Source of the DNA: an uncultured bacterium
GTDB taxonomy: Bacteria; Planctomycetota; UBA1135; GCA-002686595
DNA length: 64,000 nucleotides
Direction: 5' to 3'
Assembly: GCA_943787795.1 (NCBI GenBank)
Contig: CALSNU010000002.1
Span: forward strand, 544,001 to 608,000
In this document: in pieces, positions 45,891 to 59,695 of the stretch
Numbering within the stretch: the first letter of the stretch is position 1
Layout: each line of letters begins with the position of its first letter
Notes under the pieces: model-generated
Told to the model about the DNA's origin: nothing
Database searches by the model: none
What the model saw: the letters and a program-made list of their open reading frames with translations, nothing else
Made by a program: the position numbers and the translations under genes

Positions 45891-47291
45891 TCAGGCGAGG
45901 ATGTCCCTCGCCACCTCGCCGTGCACGTCCGTCAGGCGGAAGTCCCGGCCGGCGTAGGGGTAGGTGAGTTGCTCGTGGTCGAGGCCGAGGATGTGGAGGA
46001 TCGTGGCGTGCCAGTCGTGGATGGACACGCGGCCCGCCACGGCCTCGATCCCGTTCTCGTCGGTGGCGCCGTGGGAGAAGCCCCCCTTCACGCCGCCGCC
46101 CGCCATCCAGGAGGTGAAGCCGCGGTTGTTGTGGTCCCGGCCGTCGCCGTTCTGCGCGTAGGGCGTCCGGCCGAACTCACCGCTCCACACCACGAGGGTC
46201 TCGTCGAGCATCCCGGAGCGGGCCAGGTCGGCGAGCAGGGCGGCGATGGGCCTGTCGATCTCGCGGCACTTGGCGGGCAGGTCCTCCCGCAGGTTGCGGT
46301 GGTGGTCCCAGCCCCCCATGCCCACCTCGATGAAGCGCACGCCCGACTCGGCCAGGTGCCGCGCGATCAGGCACTGGCGGCCGAAGGCGTCCGTCTCGGG
46401 CGTCCCGATGCCGTAGGCCTCAAGGGTCCTCTTCTTCTCCTTGGAGATGTCGAGCAGCTCAGGCAGCTCGCTCTGCATCCGGAAGGCGAGCTCGTAGGAC
46501 TGGATCACCGCGTCGATCTCATCGCTCCCGCGGCGCCGCTTCGCGTTCGTCTCGTTGAGCTTGCGCAGCAGGTCCAGCTGCGCGCGCTGCTGCTTGTCGG
46601 ACTGCCGCGGGTTGCGGATGTCGGACACCGGGTCCTTGGCCTGCCGGCCGCGCTGCCCGCCGCCCGAGACCTTGATCGGCATGCCCTGGAACGTGGCGGG
46701 GAGGAAGGAGCTCCCGTAGTTCTGGGCGCCGCCCTGGTTCCGGGGCGGGTTCAGGGTCACAAAGCCGGGGAGGTTCTCGTTCTCGGTGCCCAGCCCGTAC
46801 AGGGTCCAGGCGCCCATGGACGGCCGCACGAACTGGAAGCTCCCGGTGTGCAGCTTGGTGGTGGCCTGGGCGTGGGCGGGGACGTCGGTGTGCATCCCGT
46901 GCAGCAGGCACAGGTGGTCGGCCTGCTTGCCGATCTCGGGGAGCAGCTCGGAGATCATCAGCCCGCTCTTCCCGCCGGGCTTGAAGGCCCAGGGCGAACC
47001 CATCAGCTTGGCGCCGCGGCGGAAGCCCGAGAGGCTCGCGCCGTCGCGCTTGGTCAGCATGGGCTTGTGGTCGAAGGTGTCCACGTGGGACGGCGCGCCC
47101 GTCATGCAGAGGAAGATGACGCGCTTGGCCCGCGCGGGGAGCCGGCCGCCGGCGGCGACGGGGCTCCCGGCCGCGGCGACACCATTCAGGGCCAGCATGC
47201 CGAAGCCGGAGGAGAGCAGCCGGAGCGCGTCGCGACGGCTCGGGGTGGAGAACGGGTTCATCTGGATGTCCTGTTGCTGCGACCTGTTCAA
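45891..47291 (-). CDS. DUF1501 family protein
   Basis: SRRDAL, AKRVIFLCMTGAPSHVDTFD, GWDHH, GEFGRTP, GRDFRLTDVHG; start may be the second Met (MNPFS). Confidence 0.93.
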   Translation of the reverse strand: MNRSQQQDIQMNPFSTPSRRDALRLLSSGFGMLALNGVAAAGSPVAAGGRLPARAKRVIFLCMTGAPSHVDTFDHKPMLTKRDGASLSGFRRGAKLMGSPWAFKPGGKSGLMISELLPEIGKQADHLCLLHGMHTDVPAHAQATTKLHTGSFQFVRPSMGAWTLYGLGTENENLPGFVTLNPPRNQGGAQNYGSSFLPATFQGMPIKVSGGGQRGRQAKDPVSDIRNPRQSDKQQRAQLDLLRKLNETNAKRRRGSDEIDAVIQSYELAFRMQSELPELLDISKEKKRTLEAYGIGTPETDAFGRQCLIARHLAESGVRFIEVGMGGWDHHRNLREDLPAKCREIDRPIAALLADLARSGMLDETLVVWSGEFGRTPYAQNGDGRDHNNRGFTSWMAGGGVKGGFSHGATDENGIEAVAGRVSIHDWHATILHILGLDHEQLTYPYAGRDFRLTDVHGEVARDILA

Positions 47292-50155
47292 TAGAGGGTC
47301 CGGAACTCGGCGGTCTGGAAGAGGGACTGCGCGAAGGCGGCCCAGGCCGCGAGCTTGGGGTCCTGGGGCTTCAGGTCGGAGGACGGAGGGCGGCTCTGGC
47401 CTCGCCCCCTTCGGCGACCCCGCGGCTTGGGCGCGGGCTCCGGGGTCATGTCCTCGTACTGGCGGAGGAAGCGCGAGACGGCCTGGGCCTCCGACGAGGA
47501 GGGCGCGCGCCCGAGGGTGAGCCGGTAGGCGTGCTCGATCCGATCACGATCGCTCCCCTCCATGGCGATCAGCGCGCTGGCCATCGCATCCGAGACCCTC
47601 AGGACGTCCTCGTTGTTCATCATGAACAGCGCCTGGGTGGCGACGCTGGTCTCGTCGCGGTCGCCTTCCACGGTCGCCGCATCCGGCGCATCGAAGACCC
47701 CTAGCGCCCCGACGGTGGCCCCGCGCAGGCTCGGCAGGTACACCGACCGAACGGGCTGCTCCGAGGTCAGGAAGCCAGAGAGCTGCTCACGGCGGAGGAC
47801 CCCCTCCACCGTGCCAACCTTGGAGCCCAGCGGGCGCCGACGGTCCAGCTCGCCCGCGGCCTGGAGCATCGCGTCACGGATCGCCTCGGCCTCGAGCCGC
47901 CGCTCGGGCATGCGCCAGAGCGTCACCACGTCCGGGTCCACCCGGTGGTGGTTCGCGTTGTGCTTGCTATCGAGCCGGTACGCGTGGGACAGGACGATCT
48001 CGCGGACCAGGGACTTCGTCGACCAGCCAGACTCCACGAACTCCGACGCGAGCCAGTCCAGGAGCTCGGGGTGGTCAGGGCGCTGTCCGCCGCTCCCGAA
48101 GTTGTCGGGGGTGCGGACGATGCCGCTCCCGAAGAGGTGGAGCCAGACCCGGTTGGCCCAGACGCGAGTGGTGAGGGGGTTCTGCTCTGAGGCGACCCAC
48201 TCGGCGAGCTCGAGCCGGCCGCTGCCTTCGCCGATCTCGACGGGGGTGAGGTGGCTGAAGACCTGGGGGATCCCCCGCTCCACGACCTGGCCGGGCTGGT
48301 CGAGCTCCCCGCGGCGCAGGACGGCGATGTCCCGGGCTGTCCCGTCGCTGGCGGTCATGGCCAACCGGTTGGAGCTCAGCGCCTTCCCGTTCTCCCCGAA
48401 GCGGCCGAGCAGGTCCTCGATCATGTCGACCTGCTGTTGCTGTTGCCTGCTCCTGCGCGCAGCGGCGCGGTCCTCGGCGCTCATCTGGCCGGCTCGCATG
48501 CGCCCACCGCCGCTCATGGGCGGCGTCGGCTCGGGCTCCAGGCGGTCGACCAGCCGCTCGAGGGTCTGGCGGAGCTCGGGGCCGAGCCGAGGTCCGTTGA
48601 CCACGTCCGCCTCGGCGGGCAGCGCGGTGAGCTCCGCGGTGTGGTTGTTCCCCGGGCCGGGGTAGGTCCCGAAGCGCGTCTCCGTGCTGAGGAAGATGCC
48701 GGCGAGGGCGTAGTAGTCCTCGATGGGGATGGGGTCGAACTTGTGGTCGTGACAGCGGGCGCAGGAGACCGTGAGACCGAGCATGCCCTGGGACATGGCG
48801 TCGATCTGCTCGTCGACCAGGTTCAGACTGAACTGCCTGGGGTCGCGGCTGTTATGGCTCTTTTGGCCCAGCGCCAGGTAGCCGGTCGCGATCAGGTTCT
48901 CGGCGCGTTCATCGGGCCCGTCGTGGTCCAGGAGGTCCCCAGCGAGCTGCTTCACGAGGAAGTCGTTGAAGGGCATGTCCGCGTTCATGGCGTCCACCAC
49001 GAAGTCGCGGTAACGCCAGGCGTGGGGGTACAGGACGTTGCTCTCCATGCCGCTGGACTCGGCGAACCTGGCCACGTCGAGCCAGTGCCGTCCGAAGCGC
49101 TCGCCGAAGGCGGTCGACGCGAGGAGCCGGTCCACCACCGCCTCGTGAGCGCCGGGAGAGCGGTCGCGCTCGAAGGCCTCCTGCTCCTCGGGGGTGGGTC
49201 CCAGCCCCGTGAGGTCGAAGGTCACCCTCCGAAGCCAGGTCAGCCGGTCGGCGTCGCCCACAGGGCGCACCCCCTGCGCGTCCATGGCCGAGCGCAGGAA
49301 GTGGTCCACCTCGGTCCAGGACCAGCGGTCGCCCTCCAGGGCGGGCACCTCGGGGCGCGTGATCGGTTGGAAGGACCAGAACTCCCGGGCCTCCTCCATG
49401 TCGATCTCTCGATTCAGAGACTCCCCGCCAGCGGAGTCACCGGTTGAGCCGCCGACGGAGACCATGGTCATCGAGGGCTCAGGGCCCTCCGGCCAGGGGG
49501 CCCCCATGGCCACCCAGCGCTCCAGGTCACGGATCTGATCGTCCTCCAGCTTGCCGCTGGGGGGCATCGCGAAGGTCGGGTCCTCGTAGCGCACGGCCTC
49601 GATCAGGGCGGACCCGTCCACGTCTCCGGGGACGAGAGCGGGGCCGGAGACGCCGCCCTTCAGGAGGGACGCCAGCGAGTCGACCTTGAGCCGGGCCTTG
49701 ATCCTGGGTGAGGTCTCGGCGTGGCAGGAGTAGCAGGCCTCGGCGAGGACCGGCCGGACCCGGGTCTCGAAGAACTCAATCTCCTCATCGGTGGGGGGCC
49801 GCTGCTCGGCGGGAGCTCCCCCGGCGTCCGGGCCAGAGGTAGGGCCAGAGGTCGGGCCAGACGTCGGTTCGGGCGTGGCCCCGGTCTCCAGGTCCTCTTG
49901 GGTCAGGAAGCCGTCGCCGTCACGATCGAAGCGACGGAAGGCCCGAGCGCTGCGCGGAAACTCATCGCGGTCGATCTTCCCGTCGAGGTTGGCATCAAAC
50001 CGGACCAGCATCCCCTTGAGGAGCCGGCCAGAGACCTCCTGTGTGGGGGAGGCCGCCAGGGTGCTCGGTGCGAGCGCCAGGGCGCTGACGGCCAGGGCGG
50101 CCAGGGGCAGCGCCGGGCGCCGGATAGCTCTACGGGTGGTGGGCATGGGCGTCAT
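47288..50155 (-). CDS. Planctomycete cytochrome c / PSCyt2 (DUF1549) / PSD1 (DUF1553) protein with EF-hands
   Basis: CYSCH, RRVTFDLTGL, HWLDVARFAES, CARCHDHKFDP, HPELLDWLA, RLEAEAIRD; DANLDGKIDRDE and DRDGDGFLTQED. Confidence 0.93.
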   Translation of the reverse strand: MTPMPTTRRAIRRPALPLAALAVSALALAPSTLAASPTQEVSGRLLKGMLVRFDANLDGKIDRDEFPRSARAFRRFDRDGDGFLTQEDLETGATPEPTSGPTSGPTSGPDAGGAPAEQRPPTDEEIEFFETRVRPVLAEACYSCHAETSPRIKARLKVDSLASLLKGGVSGPALVPGDVDGSALIEAVRYEDPTFAMPPSGKLEDDQIRDLERWVAMGAPWPEGPEPSMTMVSVGGSTGDSAGGESLNREIDMEEAREFWSFQPITRPEVPALEGDRWSWTEVDHFLRSAMDAQGVRPVGDADRLTWLRRVTFDLTGLGPTPEEQEAFERDRSPGAHEAVVDRLLASTAFGERFGRHWLDVARFAESSGMESNVLYPHAWRYRDFVVDAMNADMPFNDFLVKQLAGDLLDHDGPDERAENLIATGYLALGQKSHNSRDPRQFSLNLVDEQIDAMSQGMLGLTVSCARCHDHKFDPIPIEDYYALAGIFLSTETRFGTYPGPGNNHTAELTALPAEADVVNGPRLGPELRQTLERLVDRLEPEPTPPMSGGGRMRAGQMSAEDRAAARRSRQQQQQVDMIEDLLGRFGENGKALSSNRLAMTASDGTARDIAVLRRGELDQPGQVVERGIPQVFSHLTPVEIGEGSGRLELAEWVASEQNPLTTRVWANRVWLHLFGSGIVRTPDNFGSGGQRPDHPELLDWLASEFVESGWSTKSLVREIVLSHAYRLDSKHNANHHRVDPDVVTLWRMPERRLEAEAIRDAMLQAAGELDRRRPLGSKVGTVEGVLRREQLSGFLTSEQPVRSVYLPSLRGATVGALGVFDAPDAATVEGDRDETSVATQALFMMNNEDVLRVSDAMASALIAMEGSDRDRIEHAYRLTLGRAPSSSEAQAVSRFLRQYEDMTPEPAPKPRGRRRGRGQSRPPSSDLKPQDPKLAAWAAFAQSLFQTAEFRTLY

Positions 50156-50355
50156 TCTCTCAGGATTCTCATCGGGTGTCGGTCGGCCTGCCCTTCACCC
50201 CTTGCGCGGTCGGCTCTCGGTCCGACCCTCCCAGTCAACACGAAGCCACCAACGAGGTTCCTCCTGTTCTTGTTCCACGTCTCGTCTCGTCCGTAGAATC
50301 GTGTCCTGCGGCCCCCCTATCGGATGCCGCGCCGGGCCCCGCGCCCGAATGCTGC

Positions 50356-51360
50356 ATGACGCACGATGATCAGAGGGCGCCTTCGGGGCGTGGTGCCGAG
50401 GTGCTCCGTCAGGAAGCCCGGGCGATCGCAGGGCTTGCAGAGCGCCTCGGGGGCGACGTCGGAGGGGCGGGGGATGCCTTCGGCGCGGCCGTAGCGATGG
50501 TCTTGTCGTGCCGCGGGCAGGTGGTCGTCACGGGGATGGGGAAGGCCGGCCTGATCGGTCAGAAGATCTCGGCCACCCTCGCCAGCACCGGGACTCCCTC
50601 CTTCTTCCTGCACCCCGCGGAGGCCCTCCACGGGGACCTCGGCCGGGTTCGGCAGGGGGACGTGGTCCTCGCCATGTCGAATTCAGGGGAGACGGCCGAG
50701 GTCAACATGGTCATGGGCGCCGTGCGCAAGCTGGGGATCCCGCTGATCGGCCTGACCGGCCGGGCCGACTCGACCCTGGGCCGCTACGCCGACTGCCTGC
50801 TCGACATCGGTCGAGTGGAGGAGGCGGGCCCCATGCGGCTCGCGCCCACCGCCAGCACGACCGTGATGCTCGCCCTGGGAGACGCCCTGGCGATGGCGGT
50901 GCTCGAGGAGCGAGACTTCGGGCCCCGGGACTACGCGATCTTCCATCCCGGGGGCAGCCTCGGTCGGAGCCTGCTCCGCGTGGACGAGGTCATGCGCAAG
51001 GGAGAGAGCCTCCCGCTGGTGAACGCCGGGACCAGCGTCGCGGACGCGCTCATCCAGACCTCGAAGACTCCGGGGCGTCCAGGGGCCTCGCTCGTGATCG
51101 ACGCGGACGGGCGCCTCGCGGGCATCTTCACCGACGGCGACCTGCGCCGGCTCCTGGAGCGCGGCGACTTCGGTCACCTTGAGCGTCCGATCGACGAGTT
51201 CATGGCCAGCGAGCCCAAGGTCCTCGGGCCGAGCGATCTGGCGGTGGACGCCCACCGACTCCTGCGCGAGAACCGGATCGATAACGCCCCCGTGATTGAC
51301 TCCGAGCGGCGCCCGGTGGGCCTGCTCGATGTCCAGGATCTGATCGAGGTCGGGATCTGA
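50356..51360 (+). CDS. kdsD: Arabinose 5-phosphate isomerase (KpsF/GutQ family; SIS plus CBS domains)
   Basis: TGMGKAGLIG, HPAEALHGDLG, SNSGET, APTASTT, FHPGGSLG, GIFTDGDLRR. Confidence 0.93.
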   Translation: MTHDDQRAPSGRGAEVLRQEARAIAGLAERLGGDVGGAGDAFGAAVAMVLSCRGQVVVTGMGKAGLIGQKISATLASTGTPSFFLHPAEALHGDLGRVRQGDVVLAMSNSGETAEVNMVMGAVRKLGIPLIGLTGRADSTLGRYADCLLDIGRVEEAGPMRLAPTASTTVMLALGDALAMAVLEERDFGPRDYAIFHPGGSLGRSLLRVDEVMRKGESLPLVNAGTSVADALIQTSKTPGRPGASLVIDADGRLAGIFTDGDLRRLLERGDFGHLERPIDEFMASEPKVLGPSDLAVDAHRLLRENRIDNAPVIDSERRPVGLLDVQDLIEVGI

Positions 51361-51367
51361 CCCAGTC

Positions 51368-54300
51368 GTGCGCCGACTGATCATCTTTGCCCTGGTCTTC
51401 GGCCTGGGTGCCTCGCTTCTCTGGTACCTCGAGTCCGAGCGGCTGAGGTCGGACTCCGATCGCACGGGGTCCCTCGACCTGGATCGCACGAGCGAGACGT
51501 CGATCCCGCCCTTCGTGCCGCCTTCGCCGGAGGCCGAGGATGAAGCCGTCGGATCAGAGACCGAGAGCACTGGATCCGACGGAAGCGGGTCCCGCGGCAG
51601 CGGGTCCGGGGGTGCGGGCCCCGACGAGGCTGTGGGCGGCGCTGCGGCCGCCGACGATCGCAACACTCTCCTCAAGGGGGAGCGGGTGGTCACCAGCGGC
51701 GCCCAGAAGACGAACCTGCCCCCGCGGCGGGCGGGCGAGCCTCGCATCGTGTTGGTCACGTCCGACATGCAGCCCACTGACGATCAGGGCACGCAGTATG
51801 AGCTGACAGGAGTCGAGGTCGACTCCTTTGTCGTGACGGGCGCGCCGCGGAATGAGGAGCCAAAGAGCAGCAGTATCCGGGCCGCGAAGGGGTACCTGGA
51901 GCTGGTCACAGAGGACCTCGGGCTGGAGTTCGACGATGACATCAACGTCCTCCTCGAGGGCGTCGTCGTCCAGCAGCTGATGAACACGCCTCTCGCCCCC
52001 TTGACGCTGGAGGCAGAGCGGCTCGACGCCAAGCTCGCCCTGGAGGAGCTCCGGTCCGTGGGCGACGATCTGGTGAGCTTCGCCTCCCGGGACTTCCGCG
52101 GCACAGGTCGCGGGCTGGTCGGCCTGGGAGGGATCGGCAGCCTCTCCTTCGAGGGTGGTGCGGATGTGGTCGTGGAGCTTGGCGCGGATCGCTCGGCGCG
52201 AATTCGTTCCAAGGAGGGGGGGCAGCTCAACGTCGTCTCAGTTCTCGGGCCGGATGGCGCGAGTCGCCGAGTGGTCCGGGTGCGTGCAGAGGGCGGCGTG
52301 GTGCTGGTCTTCGGTGACGCCTCCGGTGAGACCGCCGACGGCGACTCGATCTCGGTGGAGGCTGGCGCCGTTGACGTGGACATCGAGCTCGGCGGAGAGG
52401 GCGTTGCCAATCGAATCCTCGACGCCCGCGCTGGCGCTGGAGTCGAGGTTCGACGGGGGCGGGACCGCTTCAGCGGGCAGGAGGGTCGTATCGAGTTCGA
52501 CGGCGCGCGGCCGCGACGGGTGACCCTGCGCGGAGAGCCGAGCGTCGCCTATGTGGTGGAGGAGGCCGACGGCGAGCTCCGGCTGGAACTGACCGGCGTC
52601 GGCCCCCTCACCGCGAACCTCGAGCCCGCCGCAGGCGCCCCCGACGAGTATGGAGCCCAGCGCTTCGTCTTCCTCGGTCCCGGCACGCTCGCCGCCGCCG
52701 ATCGGGGTGGCACCATCACGTTCCAGAACGAGGCCCAGGGCCGCGCGTCCATGGATCGGTCGAGCGCGGTGGTCCTCCTCAGTGGATCGGTCCGCGCCGA
52801 CTCCGCCGAGGGGGCGCTCGAATCCGAGTCTGTCCTGGCGACCTACCGCGGCGAGCGAGGGGTGCAGCTCTCGGCCGAGGGGCCCTCCACCCTCAGGGCG
52901 CGGCGAGCCGACGGTCTCTACCGGGCGGAGGCGAGGGGCGGGCTGACCGCACGTCTCGAGGGCGAGCGTTGGTTCATTGACGAGGCCCGAAGCTTCGAGG
53001 CGGAGGCCCTGGGGGAGGAGCCGCATCGGCTCACCGCCGGGGTGGTCCGTGACGTGGATGTTGCGGGAGAGACCTTGGTGGCCTCGGGTGGCGTTCGCTA
53101 TCAGTCCCTTTGGGGCGAGGCCCGTTCGACCTCAGCCAGGCTACATGGCGGCGCCGAGATCGACCTCGAGGGCACCGTCGAGGAGCCGGTGATGCTCAGC
53201 CTGGTCCCGGAGAGCCAGGGTCTGAGGGACGAGGCCGAGGATGTTGCTGGAGTGAGGACGGGCGTTGTGAGCTCGCTCTCCATGGCCCTCTCTCGCGACG
53301 CCTTCACGGCCCAGGGTCAGGCCATGGCCGAGCTTGAGGGTTCGGAGGGGCAATGGCAGCTCGACAGCGACCGGATCCGAGGTCTGAGGGAGGCCGCCGG
53401 CAGCGACGGCAGCTCACCCTTCCAGTTCGAGGTGACGGGGGTCCGCGAGCTGCGCTTGGAGAGCGCCCTCGAGCGCAGCACCTTCTCGGCGGAGAAGGTG
53501 TGGGTGGACGGGGTGGTCCTCGGGGAGGGGGGGGCCAACCTGGCGATGGATGAGGCGCGGTCCATCGAGGTTCGTGCCGAGGGCAACGTCAGCGTCAGGA
53601 TCGAGAGCCTCGCGCCGGAGGGGCCCTTGGACCTCCTCGCCTCATGGAGCATGGAGGCTGCCGCCGCCACCCTGCGGCGTGGAGCGCAGGGCGACGACCT
53701 CCGGGCGCCGTTCACGCTCGTCGCCGAGCAGGTGACGCGCGGTCACTTCGAGGGGGCCGGTGTGAGCGCCGACCTCTCGGCGGACCAGGTCGAGGTCGAC
53801 GGGGTGGTCGGCTCGCGGGTCGCGCTCTCGGCCGAAGATCGGGATCAGGCTCTGGTTGGCTCATCCCTCACAGCGACCGGGAAGGTGGAGACCTCCTTCG
53901 CGATGAACCCGGGCAGACCTCCGATCCAGGGGAGAGGGGACCACTTCATGCTCGTGGATGGTCAGCGCGGTCAGCTCGGTGCGGACCCGGGTAAGCGGGT
54001 GCGAGCGCGGGGGTTGCTGCCGGACCGGGAGGAGCCCTTCGTGCTCACGGCTCGCTCCGTGGACTTCTCGCGGGCCGAGCTACGGGCGGTCGAGCCTGTG
54101 CTGGAGGTCCAGGGCGCGAGGCCGCTGATGGACTTTGGCGGTATCCGCCTCAAGCGGATCTCCGGTGAGTACCTCGAGGCCACGCGCCAGCGGGCCGTCC
54201 TCGCGGGGACCCAGGAGGACCCGGTGCTGGGCGTGGGAGTCAACGACAGGGGGGAGCCCATCTCCATCCGCGCTCGTCGAGTGGAGATTCCCCTGGGCGA

Positions 54301-56957
54301 GCTCGGGGACGCGAACGTCGACCCCGGCGCGCCCAGCCGCACCCTGGGGCCGTTCGATCCGGTGCCCGCTGTTCAGGAGGATGACGACGATGGCGTCGAG
54401 ATGGTCGGCTTCGAGCTCGACCTCGGCGGCGGAAGACTCCTCAGGGGAGAGACCGGTGAGTTTGACGGAGACCGGCTGCGGCTCGAGGGCAAGCCCGCCA
54501 CGCTCCGCGTCGCAGGGCTCGAGGTGGCGGCCGACTTCATCGAGCTTGACCTCGTGGACTACCTCCTCCATACCGGGCGCGGTTCGATCCGAAGTCCGGG
54601 TGTCGAGGGGGAGCCTCCTTACTCGGTCGAGTTCGCCGGGATCGAATCCCAGCTCGTCGGGGACGAGGTCCTGGTCACGGTCAACGCACCTTCTTTCTCG
54701 GCGGGCGCGGACAGCGCCCGCGCGGACTTCTTGGCCCTCTTTCTCGATCGCGCCCGCTGGCGGGCGCGGGGCGACAGCGCCTACCGGGGGATCCCTGAGC
54801 CCGAGCTGGAGGCGCCTCTGGTGCCGGACTTGGCGAGCAAGCCCAACTTCCTGGCGGAGCTCCTCTTCGAGCTCCAGACCCGCGAGTTCGGCAAGTACTT
54901 GCGATCGATCTACATCGAGGGGGGCTTCGAGGTCCTCAGGGGAGACAACCGCTCAGCCACAGGCGAGCGCGTGTACGTCGACCTCCCGCGAGCCGTCACG
55001 TGGGCAGAGGGGTTCGAGCTCTCTTACCCCCTGGAGACTCGAGGGCAGAACGTTCCCCTGCGGATCAAGACGGAGCGCATCGAGTCGAATGAGGAGGGTG
55101 CTCTCGTGGCTGATGGCGCGACCCTGACCACCTGCAGCCATCAGGAGCCGCACTTCGTGGTGAGGACCCGGAAGTTCTCGCTCTCCCCACGCGACGATGG
55201 CCGCTGGCGGTTCGCGGCCCGCGGTAACCGGATCAAGTTCGAGGGCGGCTTCGGCATGCCGCTGCCGTCCATCGGCAACGTCGTGCTGGACGAGGAGTTC
55301 GGGGTCGAGGGGTTCGAGGATGAGGCAGGAGAGGTCACCCCCCTCAGCGATATCGCCGTGGCCCAGACCGCGCGCTTCGGCGCGACGCTGGGAGCGGCCT
55401 TCCGCTTCGATGTCGGCGGCGTGGGCTCATGGATCGGCGAGCGGCTGGGCATGAACCCTGACCAGATCGAAGGTAAGTGGGACACCTCGGCGAGCTACCT
55501 CTGGGATCGTGGTCCGCTCCTGGGCCTTGGCCTCAGCCTCCGCGAGCATGAGCCCGGCGACGATGCTGGTGAGGACTTCCGCGTCGACGCGTTCGTCGGA
55601 GGCATCCCCGATAGCGGCATGGACCGTGGCACGGTTCGCGTGCCGGAGGACGAGCGGGACACCCTCCGCGTCTTCGGCTACCTGAGGAGCCGCTACCCGA
55701 TCGTCCGCGGTGAGTGGATCGACGTCGCCGTTGCCTCTCAGACGGACGCCGGCGTGCAGTCCGAGTTCTATGAGAACGACTACCAGCGCTTCGACCAGCG
55801 GGACACCTTTGTTCGCTGGCGTAAGTCGCTCGGCGCAGACTACCTCGCCGCCGGGGCACAGAAGCGGATCAACTCGTTCCGCAGTCAGAAGGAGGAGCTG
55901 CCCTCCTTCCAGGCCTACCGGGGAGAGCGCGCCGTGGGCGAGGTCGCCGGGCTCCCCTTGCTCTATGGCGGGTCATTCGAGGCGGGCTACTTCCGACGTC
56001 GCGAAGGGGTGGCGAAGGATGACCTGTTCTCGGACCTCCCCGGCGGCGCTCAGCTCCCCATCGGCGACGGGGACTCTGGGCGAGCGGACCTCATTCAGCG
56101 GGTCGCGCTCCCCCTCCGGACGGGGGTCGGCGGAATCAAGGCAACGCCCTTCGCCGAGGTGCGCGGCACGGCGTGGACCGAGTCGCTCGACGATGACGGA
56201 GAGGACCCGCTGCGGGGCGCGGCCATCGCGGGCATGGAGCTCTCCACGACCCTCCACAAGGTCACCGACAGCGGATACCTGCACGCGCTAGCGCCGCGCA
56301 TCTCGGCGTCCAAGGACCTTTGGTACGAGGAGAGCGGCGGCGAGCTGATCCCCTTTGACCGGACCGAGGAGCCGATCGATGGCGATCGCTATGAGGCGGG
56401 TCTCCGGGCGCTCTGGCAGCGACCGAGCACCTTCGAGACTTTCGACCTCGACGTCCGAGCGACGCTCCTCAAGGACCGCTCAAGAGAGGACCTCGAGGAC
56501 CTGAGACAGGTCGCGACGTTGGGCCGGTACATCACGGGGTATGGCAGCGGCGAGGGGCTGATCGGCATCCTCCATGACGCCCGCTACGACGTCGAGAACA
56601 CCGAGACGACCTACACACGGAGCACCTTCGCGGTGCGGCCCGATGACGAGTACCTGTTCGAGGTCAGCTACGGTCAGGCGCGGGCGCTCGACCGGGCGGA
56701 GCTCTACGAGACGGCTGGCGTCGCCGGGCGCTGGATGGTGGACCCGAAGTGGGAGATCGAAGCGCGGTACTCCAGGGACCTGCGCGAGAGCGAGTCGTTG
56801 CTCACGGAGCTCGTCCTGCGGCGCTTCAGTCACGACTTCGTGCTCGACCTGATCTTCCAGGACCGGGCCGGTGAGGGCGGGACCACGATCGGGTTGAGCT
56901 TCAAGCCGCTCCTGGGCTGGACCCGAAGCCGTCCTGGGCCTGCTGGACCGGCGCTAG
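51368..56957 (+). CDS. Very large LptD-like LPS assembly protein with LptC/OstA-like N-terminal region
   Basis: N-terminal TM; LptC-like segment; LTTCSHQEPHF motif ~55125; alternating beta-strands to the C-terminus; stop at 56957 after removing one C at ~56933 (ORF track runs to 57097). Confidence 0.7.
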
Positions 56958-56961
56958 TCGC

Positions 56962-57723
56962 TCAGTTGCCCACGGGCGTCCACGTCATCCCGTCCTGGGC
57001 GGTGAGGCCAGCTGCGGCCAGCGCCACATCCGAGCTCATGTCATCGGTCACCGAGAAGGCTGCGTCGAACTCTGGCGAGCGGTTCAGGCCGTCGTAAGCA
57101 CCCCCCGATGCCCCGATGTTGTTCCGGGTCGCCACGACGTCCCCGATCTCGTTGATCATGAAGGCCCTGCGGCCGGTGCGATTGATCTGCTTGGGCCACG
57201 CGTAGCAGCACCACATCAACTCGCAGTTCTGGCTGTCCGGGTAGGCGCCGGGGTTCGCTCCGCCGCTACCACGCTCGGGGAGGCCACCGACGACGCCGCC
57301 TGTGCCTCTGTTGGGGAGGAAGATCTTGAAGTAGTAGCCGTTGCGCTCGATGGTCCCTTCACCTGCGTTGTCGAAGACGTCTGAGAACTGCTTGGACAGG
57401 AAGGACGGCTGGGCGCTGTCGCCCGCAGCGCCGATGCCGATCCCGAGCGCGGACCAGACTCGGACGGGGGTGCCTCCAGAGAGCTCTCCGAAGTAACCCG
57501 CTTCACCACCACCGTCGAGATCCGTGTCGATGGTGACGCTCGAGATCATGTTCTGCTGAGCGGTGGCGATCGACCGGAGGGTCGAGATGGTGGCGTTCTC
57601 GTTGGCCGAGATCCGCGCGCTCACCAGCTTTGGGATCGCGATGGCCGCGACGATCGCGATGATCGCGACGACGATCATCAACTCGATGAGGGTGAAGCCG
57701 GACTGCTTGTTGGGACGGGGCAT
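56962..57723 (-). CDS. Type IV pilin-like protein (prepilin N-methylation motif)
   Basis: G|FTLIELMIVVAIIAIVAAIAIP, ANE..LRSI, GYYF, YAWP..TGRRAF. Confidence 0.88.
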   Translation of the reverse strand: MPRPNKQSGFTLIELMIVVAIIAIVAAIAIPKLVSARISANENATISTLRSIATAQQNMISSVTIDTDLDGGGEAGYFGELSGGTPVRVWSALGIGIGAAGDSAQPSFLSKQFSDVFDNAGEGTIERNGYYFKIFLPNRGTGGVVGGLPERGSGGANPGAYPDSQNCELMWCCYAWPKQINRTGRRAFMINEIGDVVATRNNIGASGGAYDGLNRSPEFDAAFSVTDDMSSDVALAAAGLTAQDGMTWTPVGN

Positions 57724-58000
57724 TGGAATCGTGCGCGAGATCAGGGCGCGGGGCGCCTGGCGGGTCGGCCGGTCCGGAGCGGACCTGCAATCGGCCCTAT
57801 CGACGTGATCCTCTGATTCCTTGACGGGTCCCGTAGCGCACCCGCAAAACACGGCTCAGGGGGCCTGCAGAGCCCCTTCAGGCCGCCACGGGAGGCGACC
57901 TGTGCCAGAAGAGGAGGGCAGCCCCCAGCGCTGACCTCTCCCCCGGGAGGGGCCAAGCGGGGGCCGCGCTGAGGGCTTCGGTGGTGACCCTGACGTGGGT

Positions 58001-59695
58001 CTAGAAGAGGCCGAGGATCTCGCCGTTCTCGTCGATGTCCACCTGCTTGTACGCAGGGGTGCGACCCAGGCCGGGCATGGTCATGATCGCTCCGGCGTAG
58101 ACGACGACGAAGCCCGCGCCGGCCGCCAGTCGGGCCTCCCGCACGGGGAACACGAACCCTTCGGGAGCCCCCTTGAACTGCGCGTCGTGGCTGAGGCTGT
58201 ACTGCGTCTTGGCCATGCAGATGGGGAGCTTGCCGTAGCCCTGCTCCTCAAGGCGCGCCAGCGTCTTCTTCGCGGCGGCAGAGAACTCCACCGACCCCGC
58301 GCCGTAGATCTTCAGGGCGAGTGCCTCCACCTTCTCGGTCAGCGGAGCTTCATCGGGATAGAGCAGCTTGAAGTCGGCTTCCCCGGACTCGGCAGCGTCG
58401 ATGATGGCCTGGCCGATCGCGGCGCCGCCTTCACCGCCCTTGGCGTGCACCTCGCTCACCTCGGCGGCGCGGGCGCCAGCCGCAAGGGCTCGCTCCTTGA
58501 CCACCTCGATCTCGGCTTCGGTATCTGTTGGGAAGCGGTTGATCGCCACAACCACCGGCACTCCGTAGCTCCGGACGTTCTTGACCTGGGCCTCCAGGTT
58601 CGAGCATCCCTTCAGCACGGCCTCGGTGTTCTCCTGGAAGAGCTCATCGGGGAGCGGGCGGCCCTGGCGGGTGGGGTAGTTCCCCGAGTGCACCTTCAGG
58701 GCGCGGATCGTGGCCACCAGCAGGACGGCGTCGGGGGTCATGCCCGAGGCGCGGCACTTGATGTCGAAGAACTTCTCGGCGCCCATGTCCGCGCCGAAGC
58801 CAGCCTCGGTCACGAGGTAGTCCACGTGACCCTGGGCGACGCGGTCCGCGACGATGGACGAGTTGCCGTGGGCGATGTTGGCGAAGGGGCCTGTATGGAC
58901 GAAGGCGAGGGTGCCCTCGGTGGTCTGCATGATGGTCGGGTCGATGGCCCGCTGCAGGATGGCGGCCATGGCACCCGCCACCTCGAGCTCATCCGCCGTG
59001 ACCGGGTCGCCCTTGCGGTTGGCCCCGATCACGATGCGTCCCAGCCGGCGCCGCACGTCCGCGAGGTCGTTGCTCATCCCGAGGATGGCCATGACCTCGG
59101 ACGCCGAGGTGATGTCGAAGCCGGTCTCGCGCGGGACGCCGTTCTTCGGCCCGCCGAGGCCAGACGTGACCTGGCGCAGGGCCCTGTCGTTCACGTCGAG
59201 GACGCGCCTCCAAGTGACCGTCGCGGGGTCGATATCGAGGGGGTTGTCCAGCAGGATCGAGGCGTCGATGGCGGCTGCCAGGAGGTTGTTCGCCGCCGTG
59301 ACGGCGTGGAAGTCCCCGGTCAGGTGGAGGTTGAAGTCCTCCATGGGGACGACCTGGCTGTATCCGCCCCCGGCGGCGCCGCCCTTGATCCCGAACACCG
59401 GGCCCATGGACGGCTGCCGGATGGCGCAGGCGGCCTTCTTGCCGAGCTTGTTGAGGGCCAGGGAGAGCCCGACCGTGTGGACGGTCTTGCCCTCGCCCGC
59501 GGGCGTGGGGGTGATGGCGGTGACCACCACGTAGCGAGACTTGCTCGCTCCGGGCTCCGCGGCCAGCTTGTGGTCCAGCTTGGCCATGTAGCGGCCGTAG
59601 GGCTCGAGTCCCTCGGGGTCGAAGCCGTACTCACCGGCGACGTCCTGGATGGGGCGGAGGGTGACGTCTCTGGCGATATCTAGGTCGGAGCGCAT
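58001..59695 (-). CDS. fhs: Formate-tetrahydrofolate ligase
   Basis: TPTPAGEGKT, GIKGGAAGGGYSQV, GPFANIAHG, TEAGFGADMGAEKF, CMAKTQYS, MTMPGL. Confidence 0.97.
   Translation of the reverse strand: MRSDLDIARDVTLRPIQDVAGEYGFDPEGLEPYGRYMAKLDHKLAAEPGASKSRYVVVTAITPTPAGEGKTVHTVGLSLALNKLGKKAACAIRQPSMGPVFGIKGGAAGGGYSQVVPMEDFNLHLTGDFHAVTAANNLLAAAIDASILLDNPLDIDPATVTWRRVLDVNDRALRQVTSGLGGPKNGVPRETGFDITSASEVMAILGMSNDLADVRRRLGRIVIGANRKGDPVTADELEVAGAMAAILQRAIDPTIMQTTEGTLAFVHTGPFANIAHGNSSIVADRVAQGHVDYLVTEAGFGADMGAEKFFDIKCRASGMTPDAVLLVATIRALKVHSGNYPTRQGRPLPDELFQENTEAVLKGCSNLEAQVKNVRSYGVPVVVAINRFPTDTEAEIEVVKERALAAGARAAEVSEVHAKGGEGGAAIGQAIIDAAESGEADFKLLYPDEAPLTEKVEALALKIYGAGSVEFSAAAKKTLARLEEQGYGKLPICMAKTQYSLSHDAQFKGAPEGFVFPVREARLAAGAGFVVVYAGAIMTMPGLGRTPAYKQVDIDENGEILGLF

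Follow-up and report, generated by a model that had tools for sequence, protein, structure and literature searches.

A fused LptC-LptA-like-LptD gene beside kdsD in a planctomycete: a probable single-polypeptide bridge for lipopolysaccharide transport

The stretch of DNA analysed here (the window) comprises 64,000 nucleotides from an uncultured member of the Planctomycetota. On its forward strand, a kdsD gene is followed 7 nt downstream by the start of a very long gene on the same strand, with the following features:

50176..51360, forward strand: kdsD, arabinose-5-phosphate isomerase of Kdo synthesis (TIGR00393 KpsF/GutQ, 294.4 bits; Pfam SIS and CBS)
51368..56957, forward strand: fused lptC-lptA(n)-lptD gene, ~1,862 aa without the unsupported base 56932
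51377..51430, forward strand: N-terminal hydrophobic helix, aa 4-21 (hydrophobicity pattern, AF2 helix)
51461..51676, forward strand: disordered acidic, Gly/Ser-rich linker, aa 32-103 (pLDDT < 50)
51686..52153, forward strand: LptC-like beta-jellyroll, aa ~107-262 (VIA-align, Pfam in homologues)
52154..54577, forward strand: LptA-like beta-jellyroll chain of unbroken beta strands, aa ~263-1070 (AF2, VIA-align)
54302..54385, forward strand: low-confidence Pro/Asp-rich loop within the bridge, aa 979-1006 (pLDDT < 50)
54575..54583, forward strand: fusion junction, aa ~1070-1072 (alignment to the Engelhardtia gene pair)
54578..55147, forward strand: LptD N-terminal periplasmic part, aa 1071-1260 (AF2, Foldseek, hhalign)
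55127..55156, forward strand: TTC...PHF motif, aa 1254-1263 (translation)
55148..56917, forward strand: LptD-type outer-membrane beta-barrel, aa ~1261-1850 (Foldseek, DSSP)
56932..56932, forward strand: extra base, unsupported by contigs X3, X6, X10 and X16
56955..56957, forward strand: conserved stop codon TAG (homologue tails)

The original prediction described one continuous frame of about 1,860 codons after kdsD, and translation bears this out: GTG 51368 opens a frame that runs through the predicted range without a stop (1,863 codons). In the uncorrected window this frame continues to 57097, giving 1,909 aa, while 51368-56957 is 5,590 nt long (not divisible by 3) and ends in a TAG in the +1 frame. 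The representative homologue P0003 (1,862 aa) agrees with the window protein to aa 1855 and then terminates in ...TRSRLGLLDRR; an RLG(L/M)LDR-type tail is present in nearly all of 48 homologues. Base 56932 is absent from the contigs of all four sequencing runs (three DNA studies and one RNA library), and is the sole indel listed in these contigs between 51300 and 57200. It puts the last seven conserved codons out of frame and adds a spurious 54-aa tail, which overlaps the convergent gene at 56962..57852. As all four runs lack the base, the real product is about 1,862 aa long and the true stop is TAG 56955-56957. A convergent pilin-like gene starts 11 nt beyond this TAG in the six closest loci. 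An alignment of 46 full-length homologues shows conservation down to 26-30% identity, so the gene is not a chance open reading frame.

The protein starts with MRR, followed by 18 uncharged residues that abut charged residues, with no polar c-region; this run (aa 4-21) is the hydrophobic helix expected from the original prediction. Nearly all aligned homologues (61 of 64) share the pattern M-(R/K)-x, an uncharged run of 15-22 residues (median 18) and charged residues directly after it. The AF2 model places a helix at aa 2-34, and model residues 5-262 align with LptC 6mjp_C in VIA-align, the aligned range there beginning at residue 2. The run is probably an uncleaved signal-anchor, predicted to form an LptC-type transmembrane helix. 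The disordered linker, also anticipated, follows at aa 32-103.

The AF2 model of aa 1-1100 has a mean pLDDT of 83.1, and its beta strands extend over aa 111-1089, so that about 960 aa of continuous periplasmic beta structure precede the LptD module. With this model as the query of an unbiased VIA-align structural search of 48,161 chains, ranks 1-9 were all Lpt proteins (LptC, LptD, LptH/LptA and LptG). An LptC-like segment had been placed near the N-terminus, and the fold is found at that position: aa ~107-262 match LptC 6mit_C (Z 14.4, rmsd 2.6, 148 residues) as well as the LptG jellyroll 8frl_G (Z 8.9). The N-terminal model also gave a second LptC match (Z 13.3) and three LptD matches (Z 12.3, 11.1 and 10.9). 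Further along the chain, aa 271-477 match LptA 2r19_A (Z 8.8), aa 549-699 match LptH 4uu4_A (Z 10.1, rmsd 2.5) and aa 941-1096 match LptC 9dor_C (Z 10.5). In homologues, Pfam LptC matches at the place equivalent to the LptC-like segment (P0048, 29.7 bits; G071, 24.3; Engelhardtia ORF1, 22.1, which is above the cut-off), and the best PDB sequence match of the N-terminal profile (A2) is a weak one to LptH (E 0.046). The expected jellyroll nature of this region is thus upheld by the nine top-ranking Lpt chains, except at residues ~700-940, where VIA-align returned no convincing structural match and the long strands gave only porin-like ones (Z ~6). For aa 640-940, the one lead is from a language model and points toward LptD_N/LptC clusters. 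Foldseek with the whole N-terminal model mainly returned long, all-beta proteins that are unrelated.

The remainder of the protein, aa ~1071-1862, is a complete LptD module. Modelled with AF2, aa 1050-1855 (pLDDT 84.0) show strands, a helical insert (aa ~1128-1176) and then a jellyroll within aa 1071-1260, followed by the predicted C-terminal barrel, for which a rough DSSP count gives about 26 long strands, starting at model residue 277. Among the Foldseek matches listed to rank 38, all are LptD chains, the best being 5iv9_A (E 5.9e-26, TM 0.61/0.65). Between the two parts lies the TTC...PHF motif, which had been noted some 1,250 aa into the frame and falls at aa 1254-1256 (TTC) and 1261-1263 (PHF). 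Its C1256 is the sole cysteine of the protein, and A1251, T1254 and P1261, in or beside the motif, are invariant or almost so in alignment A1. The C-terminal family alignment matches nine ordinary planctomycete LptDs with 100% probability (hhalign, E 2.8e-51, 668 columns), and these in turn match solved LptDs (E 1.4e-15). The whole protein has no match in Pfam or NCBIfam, its C-terminal piece reaches 19.6 bits against Pfam LptD (cut-off 22.4), and a search of PDB sequences with the C-terminal profile (E <= 1) retrieves nothing. Across 26 diverse homologues, Pfam LptD matches six (two above cut-off), LptD_N three (one above cut-off) and LptC three (one above cut-off).

The original prediction also proposed that these parts are fused in a single polypeptide, and the folds, the conserved frame and the comparison with two-gene relatives all support this. 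All but one of the 48 homologues span 1,583-1,972 aa. One continuous frame is kept in 67 of 80 related loci, including the complete genome of Saltatorellus ferox Poly30, and contigs X3 (51300-56614) and X10 (53682-57200) span the junction, which is free of indels in contigs from three DNA studies. A true two-gene form occurs at four loci (Engelhardtia mirabilis Pla133, L065, L081 and L082), in which an anchored LptC/LptA-like bridge gene is followed by a separate lptD that encodes its own signal peptide. The alignment of Engelhardtia ORF1 reaches aa 1072 of the window protein, and the mature Engelhardtia LptD (from residue 50, after a signal-peptide-like stretch ending TSAFA) aligns from aa 1071. 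As both genes of the split form line up end to end along the window protein, the two-gene loci back a functional link between its halves.

The genomic context fits lipopolysaccharide (LPS) transport. Of 80 related loci, 67 have a kdsD homologue immediately ahead of the gene and in the same orientation. Elsewhere in the same genome we found LptF and LptG (173.3 and 155 bits), LptB (336.6 bits, beside lepB rather than near the fusion gene), LpxC (290 bits) and WaaA (152.2 bits); LptE was undetected. Searches of the genome with Pfam models and the family profile found no separate LptA, LptC or LptD: there was no further Pfam LptD, LptD_N or LptC match, and the A2 profile recovered only the fusion gene. 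As the genome is an estimated 84.9% complete, missing separate LptA and LptC genes are no proof of absence. In the complete genomes of two relatives, Pfam likewise found no stand-alone LptA or LptC except the upstream ORF of the Engelhardtia pair.

We propose that this one polypeptide probably makes up the entire periplasmic and outer-membrane portion of the LPS transport (Lpt) pathway. Its N-terminal helix, probably of the LptC membrane type, leads through the flexible linker to an LptC-like jellyroll; an LptA-like jellyroll chain of ~800 aa comes next, and a complete LptD, with its periplasmic jellyroll and a barrel of some 26 strands, closes the protein. The E. coli bridge has its parts arranged head to tail in this same order, which makes the fusion topologically natural. 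LptB2FG, encoded elsewhere, would pull LPS out of the inner membrane and hand it to the first jellyroll, from where it would slide through one continuous, covalent and presumably hydrophobic groove into the LptD barrel and on to the cell surface. Soluble LptA would then be dispensable, and the bridge would need no subunit assembly. Judging from ~73 strands plus the LptD N-domain, the bridge may be about twice as long as the minimal E. coli bridge, the E. coli side being a rough estimate; as originally suggested, such extra length could suit a wide periplasm. We found no earlier report of such a fusion in the literature searched.

If the N-terminal helix stays uncleaved, as seems likely, a single chain would sit in both membranes. 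The same architecture could instead carry a cleaved Sec signal peptide, leaving a mature LptD in the outer membrane whose very long periplasmic arm reaches LptFG without embedding in the inner membrane. An 18-residue run is borderline for a membrane helix, this one contains the small residues G12, G14, A15 and S16, and E. coli LptC is functional without its transmembrane helix. However, the run abuts charged residues, with neither a polar c-region nor a small-x-small site downstream, and 61 of 64 homologues retain G14, L18 and the placement of the run, a conservation that is unusual in signal peptides. The LptD signal peptides of the two-gene forms also look quite different (e.g. ...TSAFA|RG), and the alignment to LptC 6mjp_C includes the helix. 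We therefore consider cleavage unlikely.

Periplasmic processing of a single precursor, releasing a separate bridge protein and LptD that function as in the two-gene relatives, seems less likely still. Such relatives exist and presumably work, and the Pro/Asp-rich loop at aa 979-1006 is modelled with low confidence, but the junction at aa ~1071 lies outside this loop, within confident strands (pLDDT 82-94 in both models), and neither a protease site nor a processing signal is evident. It is equally improbable that the machine carries something other than LPS, such as another glycolipid or surface lipoproteins. Published work on an LptD homologue in Borrelia and on LptDE of E. coli ties LptD to surface lipoproteins, LptE was not detected and the sequence has diverged strongly from that of model LptDs; against this stand the recurrent kdsD pairing (67 of 80 loci), the presence of LpxC, WaaA and LptB/F/G in the genome, and the fusion gene being the only LptD-like gene found there. 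That the long frame is an artefact joining two genes has next to no likelihood and is already contradicted: the window does hold one unsupported base (56932) and locus L020 has a break at another position, but the frame recurs in 67 of 80 independently assembled loci (one a complete isolate genome), no contig of three DNA studies has an indel at the junction, and the ORF1 tail and LptD signal peptide of the split forms are absent from the fused proteins.

The single-chain bridge shares its folds and their order with the E. coli LptB2FG-LptC-LptA(n)-LptD/E system (helix and jellyroll, jellyroll(s), jellyroll and barrel), as judged from the matches to 6mit_C, 6mjp_C, 2r19_A, 4uu4_A and 5iv9_A, and both have the kdsD linkage and an LptB/F/G motor. 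In contrast to E. coli, all non-ABC parts lie in one polypeptide, a disordered linker of ~70 aa follows the helix, lptB is not adjacent and LptE is undetected. The periplasmic part (~960 aa) is longer than E. coli LptC plus one LptA, which together comprise roughly 350 aa, and similarity to known Lpt proteins is below Pfam thresholds. E. coli LptD has interdomain disulfide bonds, which the window protein cannot form with its single cysteine.

Closer to home, the kdsD context recurs in the two-gene Planctomycetota, as does an anchored LptC/LptA-like bridge protein, ~940-1,100 aa in length, and their LptD has 31% identity with the C-terminal module across 788 residues. Their genes overlap, and they have a cleavable LptD signal peptide and a short C-terminal bridge tail; both extras are gone in the window protein. 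Pfam LptC matches in 38 of 121 sampled Planctomycetota genomes, and 27 of the 38 matching frames are at least 560 aa long, many of them ~650-1,200 aa (stop-to-stop lengths, hence upper bounds), so LptC-LptA-type elongation looks common in this phylum. LptD frames in other Planctomycetota are of ordinary length (601-1,264 aa), and at least one genome (G008) has its LptD and LptC-domain genes at separate loci. Among the sampled genomes, frames of at least 1,400 aa with an LptD module occur only in the window's own family (4 of 4 genomes) and in one sister-family genome.

Among other envelope bridges, TamB/AsmA-like proteins combine an N-terminal anchor, a long beta-rich periplasmic lipid conduit and an outer-membrane barrel partner. 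No TamB/AsmA chain is among the 50 best VIA-align matches, the top nine being Lpt proteins, and the barrel of the window protein is of LptD type and lies in the same chain. MlaD of Veillonella parvula is a single polypeptide (transmembrane domain, MCE domain, helix and beta-barrel) proposed to lie in both membranes as a bridge for lipid traffic, which fractionation supports (PMC10665443). The same paper reports no barrel-bearing MlaD from the PVC group. The V. parvula protein differs from the window protein in its fold (an MCE hexamer and helical tunnel), its phospholipid cargo and its small 10-strand barrel.

The window protein is encoded directly downstream of kdsD, and its gene and neighbours are arranged as follows:

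47288..50155, minus strand, divergent from kdsD: a 955-aa planctomycete PSCyt1/PSCyt2/PSD1 (DUF1549/DUF1553) protein with an N-terminal EF-hand, its gene kept upstream in eight close loci
50176..51360, plus strand: kdsD, a KpsF/GutQ/KdsD-type arabinose-5-phosphate isomerase with SIS and CBS domains (TIGR00393, 294.4 bits)
51368..56957, plus strand: the fused gene
56962..57852, minus strand, convergent: a 296-aa pilin-like protein that matches the prepilin-type N-terminal methylation motif (PF07963, E 3e-11) and, weakly, DUF2950; the gene is kept in the six closest loci, starting 11 nt past the conserved end of the fused gene
58001..59695, minus strand: formate-tetrahydrofolate ligase (PF01268, 822.5 bits)

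The original prediction of a single continuous frame after kdsD is borne out: from the GTG at 51368 (+), 7 nt beyond the kdsD stop, no stop occurs over 1,863 codons, spanning the whole range 51368..56957. Position 56957 is the end of a TAG in the +1 frame, not in the window's frame, which as written stays open to 57097 (1,909 aa). The cluster representative P0003 (1,862 aa) matches the window protein up to aa 1855 and then ends ...TRSRLGLLDRR, and nearly all of the 48 homologues returned by a protein search have a tail resembling this one. Base 56932 is absent from the contigs of four out of four public sequencing runs (three DNA studies and one RNA library), and these list no other indel between 51300 and 57200. 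The extra base is probably an assembly or consensus error; it puts the last 7 conserved codons out of frame and lengthens the ORF by 47 codons, a spurious extension that reaches into the convergent gene at 56962..57852. Since the P0003 tail is conserved and all four runs lack the base, the true product is ~1,862 aa, with TAG 56955-56957 as its stop. Contigs from the RNA library cover 24 of 30 bins, to which DNA carry-over possibly contributes.

Of the homologues, 47 are 1,583-1,972 aa long, and the remaining one (1,213 aa) lies on a 5.9-kb contig. All named homologues belong to the Planctomycetota, and the naming sources label them hypothetical. Pfam and NCBIfam name no family for the whole window protein, so routine annotation would also give "hypothetical".

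A frame of this size could be an assembly error, with the orthologues split into separate genes. We scanned one genome per species (137 relatives), keeping 80 loci. A single unbroken frame of 1,550-2,100 aa with LptD-like motifs occurs in 64 of these, and three more (L041, L052 and L074) are also unbroken from just past kdsD through the LptD end. The one-frame total is thus 67/80, with Saltatorellus ferox Poly30 (L014, Poly30_00480; complete chromosome) among them. Eight loci are interrupted by contig ends or Ns (L017, L035, L040, L047, L054, L060, L062 and L070). In one MAG locus (L020:9935-15620), frames of 676 and 1,340 aa overlap by ~360 nt, with the break away from the LptD junction and no signal peptide on the second frame; this is probably a frameshift, and a frameshift or pseudogene is the likely range of explanations. 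Two overlapping genes are found in the last four loci (L046, from the complete genome of Engelhardtia mirabilis Pla133, and L065, L081 and L082). In the window's population, public-run contigs X3 (51300-56614) and X10 (53682-57200) cross the junction, and neither has an indel there. The LptC-LptA-LptD fusion is real. In 67 of the 80 loci, kdsD is the immediate upstream neighbour, on the same strand. Two MAGs labelled Glaciecola sp. (L021) and Paracoccaceae (L031) hold the kdsD and giant-gene pair on contigs of 11.7 and 9.6 kb, respectively; since they carry this pair, they are probably planctomycete contigs in the wrong bins.

The two-gene loci show where the fusion was made. Engelhardtia ORF1 (944 aa) has a hydrophobic anchor at its start and is the sole Pfam LptC match in the complete genome (22.1 bits, over the cut-off). 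Overlapping it by 43 nt is ORF2 (817 aa), in which a signal-peptide-like stretch (...LVALAATLAATTGTSAFA, then RGP) precedes LptD; the LptD ORFs of L065, L081 and L082 have hydrophobic signal-like heads too. ORF2 aligns with the window protein at 31% identity over 788 residues (BLASTP, E 2e-109). By BLASTP, the end of ORF1 (residue ~928) corresponds to window aa ~1072, and ORF2 residue 50, right past the signal-peptide-like stretch, to aa 1071. The window protein is therefore ORF1 less its tail, joined to mature LptD. Whereas LptD of the split relatives has its own signal peptide, the LptD module of the window protein has none, nor a free N-terminus for LptA docking, and directly continues the bridge at aa ~1071. 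The junction region consists of confident strands in both AF2 models (pLDDT 82-94). By analogy with E. coli, the join would be placed where the final bridge unit docks on the LptD N-terminal domain.

A second possibility is that the N-terminus is a cleaved signal peptide. Of 64 aligned homologues, 61 begin with M-(R/K)-x and then have 15-22 uncharged residues (median 18), which in the window protein form a hydrophobic run at aa 4-21, with G14 and L18 at least 90% conserved. The uncharged run stops right at charged residues, with no polar c-region or small-x-small site after it, and it is dissimilar to the signal peptides on split-form LptDs. Because the run is conserved, lacks these cleavage features and is unlike the split-form signal peptides, we favour an LptC-type signal-anchor that stays uncleaved.

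The C-terminal module is LptD. When the window protein was searched as five overlapping pieces, the lone Pfam or NCBIfam match was LptD in the C-terminal piece, at 19.6 bits against a cut-off of 22.4. Among 26 diverse homologues, Pfam LptD (PF04453) matches six, two of them over the cut-off. For comparison, we gathered nine ordinary planctomycete LptDs (781-932 aa; genomic matches over the Pfam LptD cut-off). The family C-terminal profile matches these with 100% probability (profile-profile, E 2.8e-51, 668 columns), and they in turn match solved LptDs (E 1.4e-15; 15 of 16 PDB matches are LptD). Searched directly against PDB sequences, the C-terminal profile returned nothing at E <= 1, and the whole-length profile returned the designed beta protein 8bl6 alone (E 7e-4), which is uninformative.

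In an AF2 model of aa 1050-1855 (63 sequences, pLDDT 84.0, pTM 0.63), strands and a helical insert lead into a jellyroll and a large barrel. This is the jellyroll and large barrel layout of LptD, with ~26 strands by a rough DSSP count. In a Foldseek search of the PDB with this model, the rows listed as far as rank 38 are LptD chains without exception, the top ones being the full-length LptDs 5iv9_A (E 5.9e-26, TM 0.61/0.65) and 9kn3_A (TM 0.62/0.66). The TTC...PHF motif that had been noticed in the sequence is indeed present at aa 1254-1263, and A1251, T1254 and P1261, in or beside it, are invariant or nearly so across the family. E. coli LptD has interdomain disulfide bonds, although these are not universal. 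The window protein lacks them, having C1256 as its lone cysteine over 1,862 aa, which sets it apart from enterobacterial LptD but not from the LptD family. LptE (PF04390) has no match in the window's own, 84.9% complete genome at E <= 1, with a model that is weak outside a few phyla, matching only E. coli, Caulobacter and Bacteroides among 14 control genomes.

In its N-terminal part, the window protein itself has no match to Pfam LptC (PF06835) or LptD_N (PF03968, OstA/LptD_N). LptC matches three of the 26 homologues at aa ~137-206 (P0048 with 29.7 bits, cut-off 21), and it also matches in a genome of the same family, G071 (24.3 bits, over the cut-off of 21); the matches of P0048, G071 and Engelhardtia ORF1 are all at the equivalent N-terminal place. 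LptD_N matches three of the 26 at aa ~325-360 (P0032 with 21.8 bits, over 20.4, at aa 325-361, and two others weaker). The best PDB sequence match of the N-terminal family profile (A2) is LptH, which is weak (E 0.046).

An AF2 model of aa 1-1100 (64 sequences, pLDDT 83.1, pTM 0.60) begins with a helix (aa 2-34) and a disordered stretch (aa 32-103), followed by 73 strands within aa 111-1089, among which the only interruptions are short helices and a single low-confidence loop (aa 979-1006). In Foldseek, LRP2, DDB1 and teneurin predominate at low probability, an uninformative outcome, and only LptD rows reach a probability of 0.89-0.99. Because of its length (1,100 aa), the model does not suit a global search, and we used VIA-align wide instead, comparing it with each of 48,161 representative chains. 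The original prediction of jellyrolls in the N-terminal region stood up well, with places one to nine occupied exclusively by Lpt proteins.

VIA-align matches of the N-terminal model to Lpt chains
6mit_C, LptC: Z 14.4, aa 107-350, rmsd 2.6, 148/175 residues
6mjp_C, LptC: Z 13.3, aa 5-262, aligned range of the chain from residue 2
5iv9_A, 8h1r_A and 7omm_A, LptD: Z 12.3, 11.1 and 10.9
9dor_C, LptC: Z 10.5, aa 941-1096
4uu4_A, LptH: Z 10.1, aa 549-699, rmsd 2.5, 124/143 residues
8frl_G, LptG jellyroll: Z 8.9, aa 109-224
2r19_A, LptA: Z 8.8, aa 271-477

The LptA chains 8onu and 7qs6 also align at aa ~123-266 (Z 7.8 and 7.7). The LptC layout of an N-terminal helix plus one beta-jellyroll is thus seen in the aa 4-21 run together with the 6mit_C and 6mjp_C alignments, and a ~16-strand jellyroll superposing on LptA in those of 4uu4_A, 2r19_A, 8onu and 7qs6. 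Unusually long strands with only porin-like matches (Z ~6) occur at aa ~700-940 and at aa 645-845 (nt ~53300-53900; strands of 13-17 residues); at aa 645-845 the conduit may be wider or have another shape. A language-model search with aa 640-940 found LptD_N, LptC and OstA_2 clusters (score 0.94), which is a lead only. A TamB/AsmA protein was set aside, as there is no DUF490/AsmA Pfam match and no such chain in the best 50 VIA-align rows, although the latter absence would not by itself decide against that family. From the predicted structure, the N-terminal 1,070 aa are best described as an LptC-LptA-type chain. LptA is a soluble secreted protein, whereas the LptA-like structure of the window protein lies within a single chain and would work like LptA without being a stand-alone LptA.

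The rest of the pathway was sought in the window's own genome (4.71 Mb, 8 contigs, estimated completeness 84.9%). LptF and LptG adjoin at C4:362446-364658 (173.3 and 155 bits), and LptB is encoded on another contig (G000:C1:129340-130125, locus L099; 336.6 bits), next to lepB (signal peptidase I), the ETF alpha and beta genes and lepA. No lptA or lptC lies beside lptB, as none of the eight ORFs scanned there has an Lpt-family match. With LptB, LptF and LptG as well as LpxC (290 bits) and WaaA (152.2 bits) encoded, the organism very likely makes LPS. The only Pfam LptD match in this genome is the window gene, as is the only match of the A2 profile, and Pfam LptC has no match at this level of completeness. 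A weak LptD_N match at C3:322827 is a false positive inside a GAPDH gene. A stand-alone LptA or LptC, which would have spoken against the predicted fusion, was accordingly not found by Pfam or the A2 profile in this 84.9% complete genome. The complete S. ferox and E. mirabilis genomes hold no LptD_N match at E <= 0.1, and their sole LptC match is Engelhardtia ORF1. A complex prediction of the own LptF-like and LptG-like proteins with window aa 100-270 scored 0.45, compared with 0.26 for one control, an outcome that counts neither for nor against binding.

Taken together, the architecture of the window protein is established with high confidence. Its best-supported reading, which we consider very probable, is a one-piece LPS bridge. 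LPS would be pulled out of the inner membrane by LptB2FG, and the first jellyroll (aa ~107-262) would take up the lipid as LptC does. It would then travel along ~800 aa of LptA-like groove, over the covalent junction and into the LptD N-domain, and exit via the LptD barrel. The domains follow each other from N to C as the parts of the E. coli bridge do from head to tail, so the fusion would have come about without rearrangement. With somewhat less assurance, we lean towards an uncleaved chain residing in both membranes, with a helix in the inner membrane and the 26-strand LptD barrel in the outer one, forming a covalent LPS slide of fixed length. The model, with 73 strands plus the LptD N-domain, suggests a bridge about twice the minimal E. 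coli length, for which the E. coli side is a rough estimate. The original prediction linked the extra length to a wide periplasm, which is plausible as an idea only.

To see how widespread this arrangement is, we surveyed 121 Planctomycetota genomes, sampled evenly. The C-terminal profile has matches in 88. LptD-module frames of at least 1,400 aa occur in all four genomes of the window's family (1,917, 1,947, 1,772 and 1,720 aa) and, outside it, only in one sister-family genome (1,438 aa); elsewhere in the sample these frames are 601-1,264 aa. Pfam LptD is over the cut-off in 60/121 genomes, nearly all with ordinary-length frames. Pfam LptC matches in 38/121, and 27 of these 38 frames are at least 560 aa, many of them ~650-1,200 aa (e.g. 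L122 and L123), where lengths are stop-to-stop and hence upper bounds. One genome (G008) has a frame with two separate LptC matches. As the LptC frames are mostly long and the LptD frames of at least 1,400 aa confined, long LptC-LptA-type bridge proteins look common across the phylum, and the additional joining of LptD looks restricted to a single lineage. The genes may plausibly have gone from unlinked to adjacent to fused.

In model bacteria, the Lpt bridge is built from separate LptC, LptA and LptD, and its LptA copy number, its stability and the fit of its length to the periplasm are hard to pin down. In a single-chain bridge, stoichiometry and length would both be set by the gene. It would provide independent evolutionary support for the model of a continuous head-to-tail bridge, as well as a one-protein target for the structure of the intact bridge. 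It also poses a puzzle of biogenesis, as the helix must be kept in the inner membrane while BAM inserts the barrel of the same chain in the outer membrane. If this is true, LPS is exported over a permanent bridge of genetically fixed length that makes soluble LptA dispensable, and the bridge could double as a molecular ruler that sets the spacing of the envelope, or as a tether. This would also be the first Lpt system with the whole route past the ABC motor in a single protein. S. ferox Poly30 has a complete genome and is a cultured, non-pathogenic isolate, and experiments are therefore feasible.

The window protein is a new variant of the Lpt system and a natural experiment for the Lpt field; the literature searched, whose coverage was outside subscription journals, held no description of an LptC-LptA-LptD fusion. 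Speth et al. 2012 (PMC3422733) reports LptD in planctomycete genomes by BLAST and does not mention LptA or LptC, and the Planctomycetes Lpt system is termed 'largely reduced' in PMC8871954. The nearest conceptual precedent is Veillonella MlaD, which, as described in PMC10665443, has an anchor in the inner membrane and a barrel at its C-terminus and has been proposed to span the envelope; its fold and cargo differ from those of the window protein.
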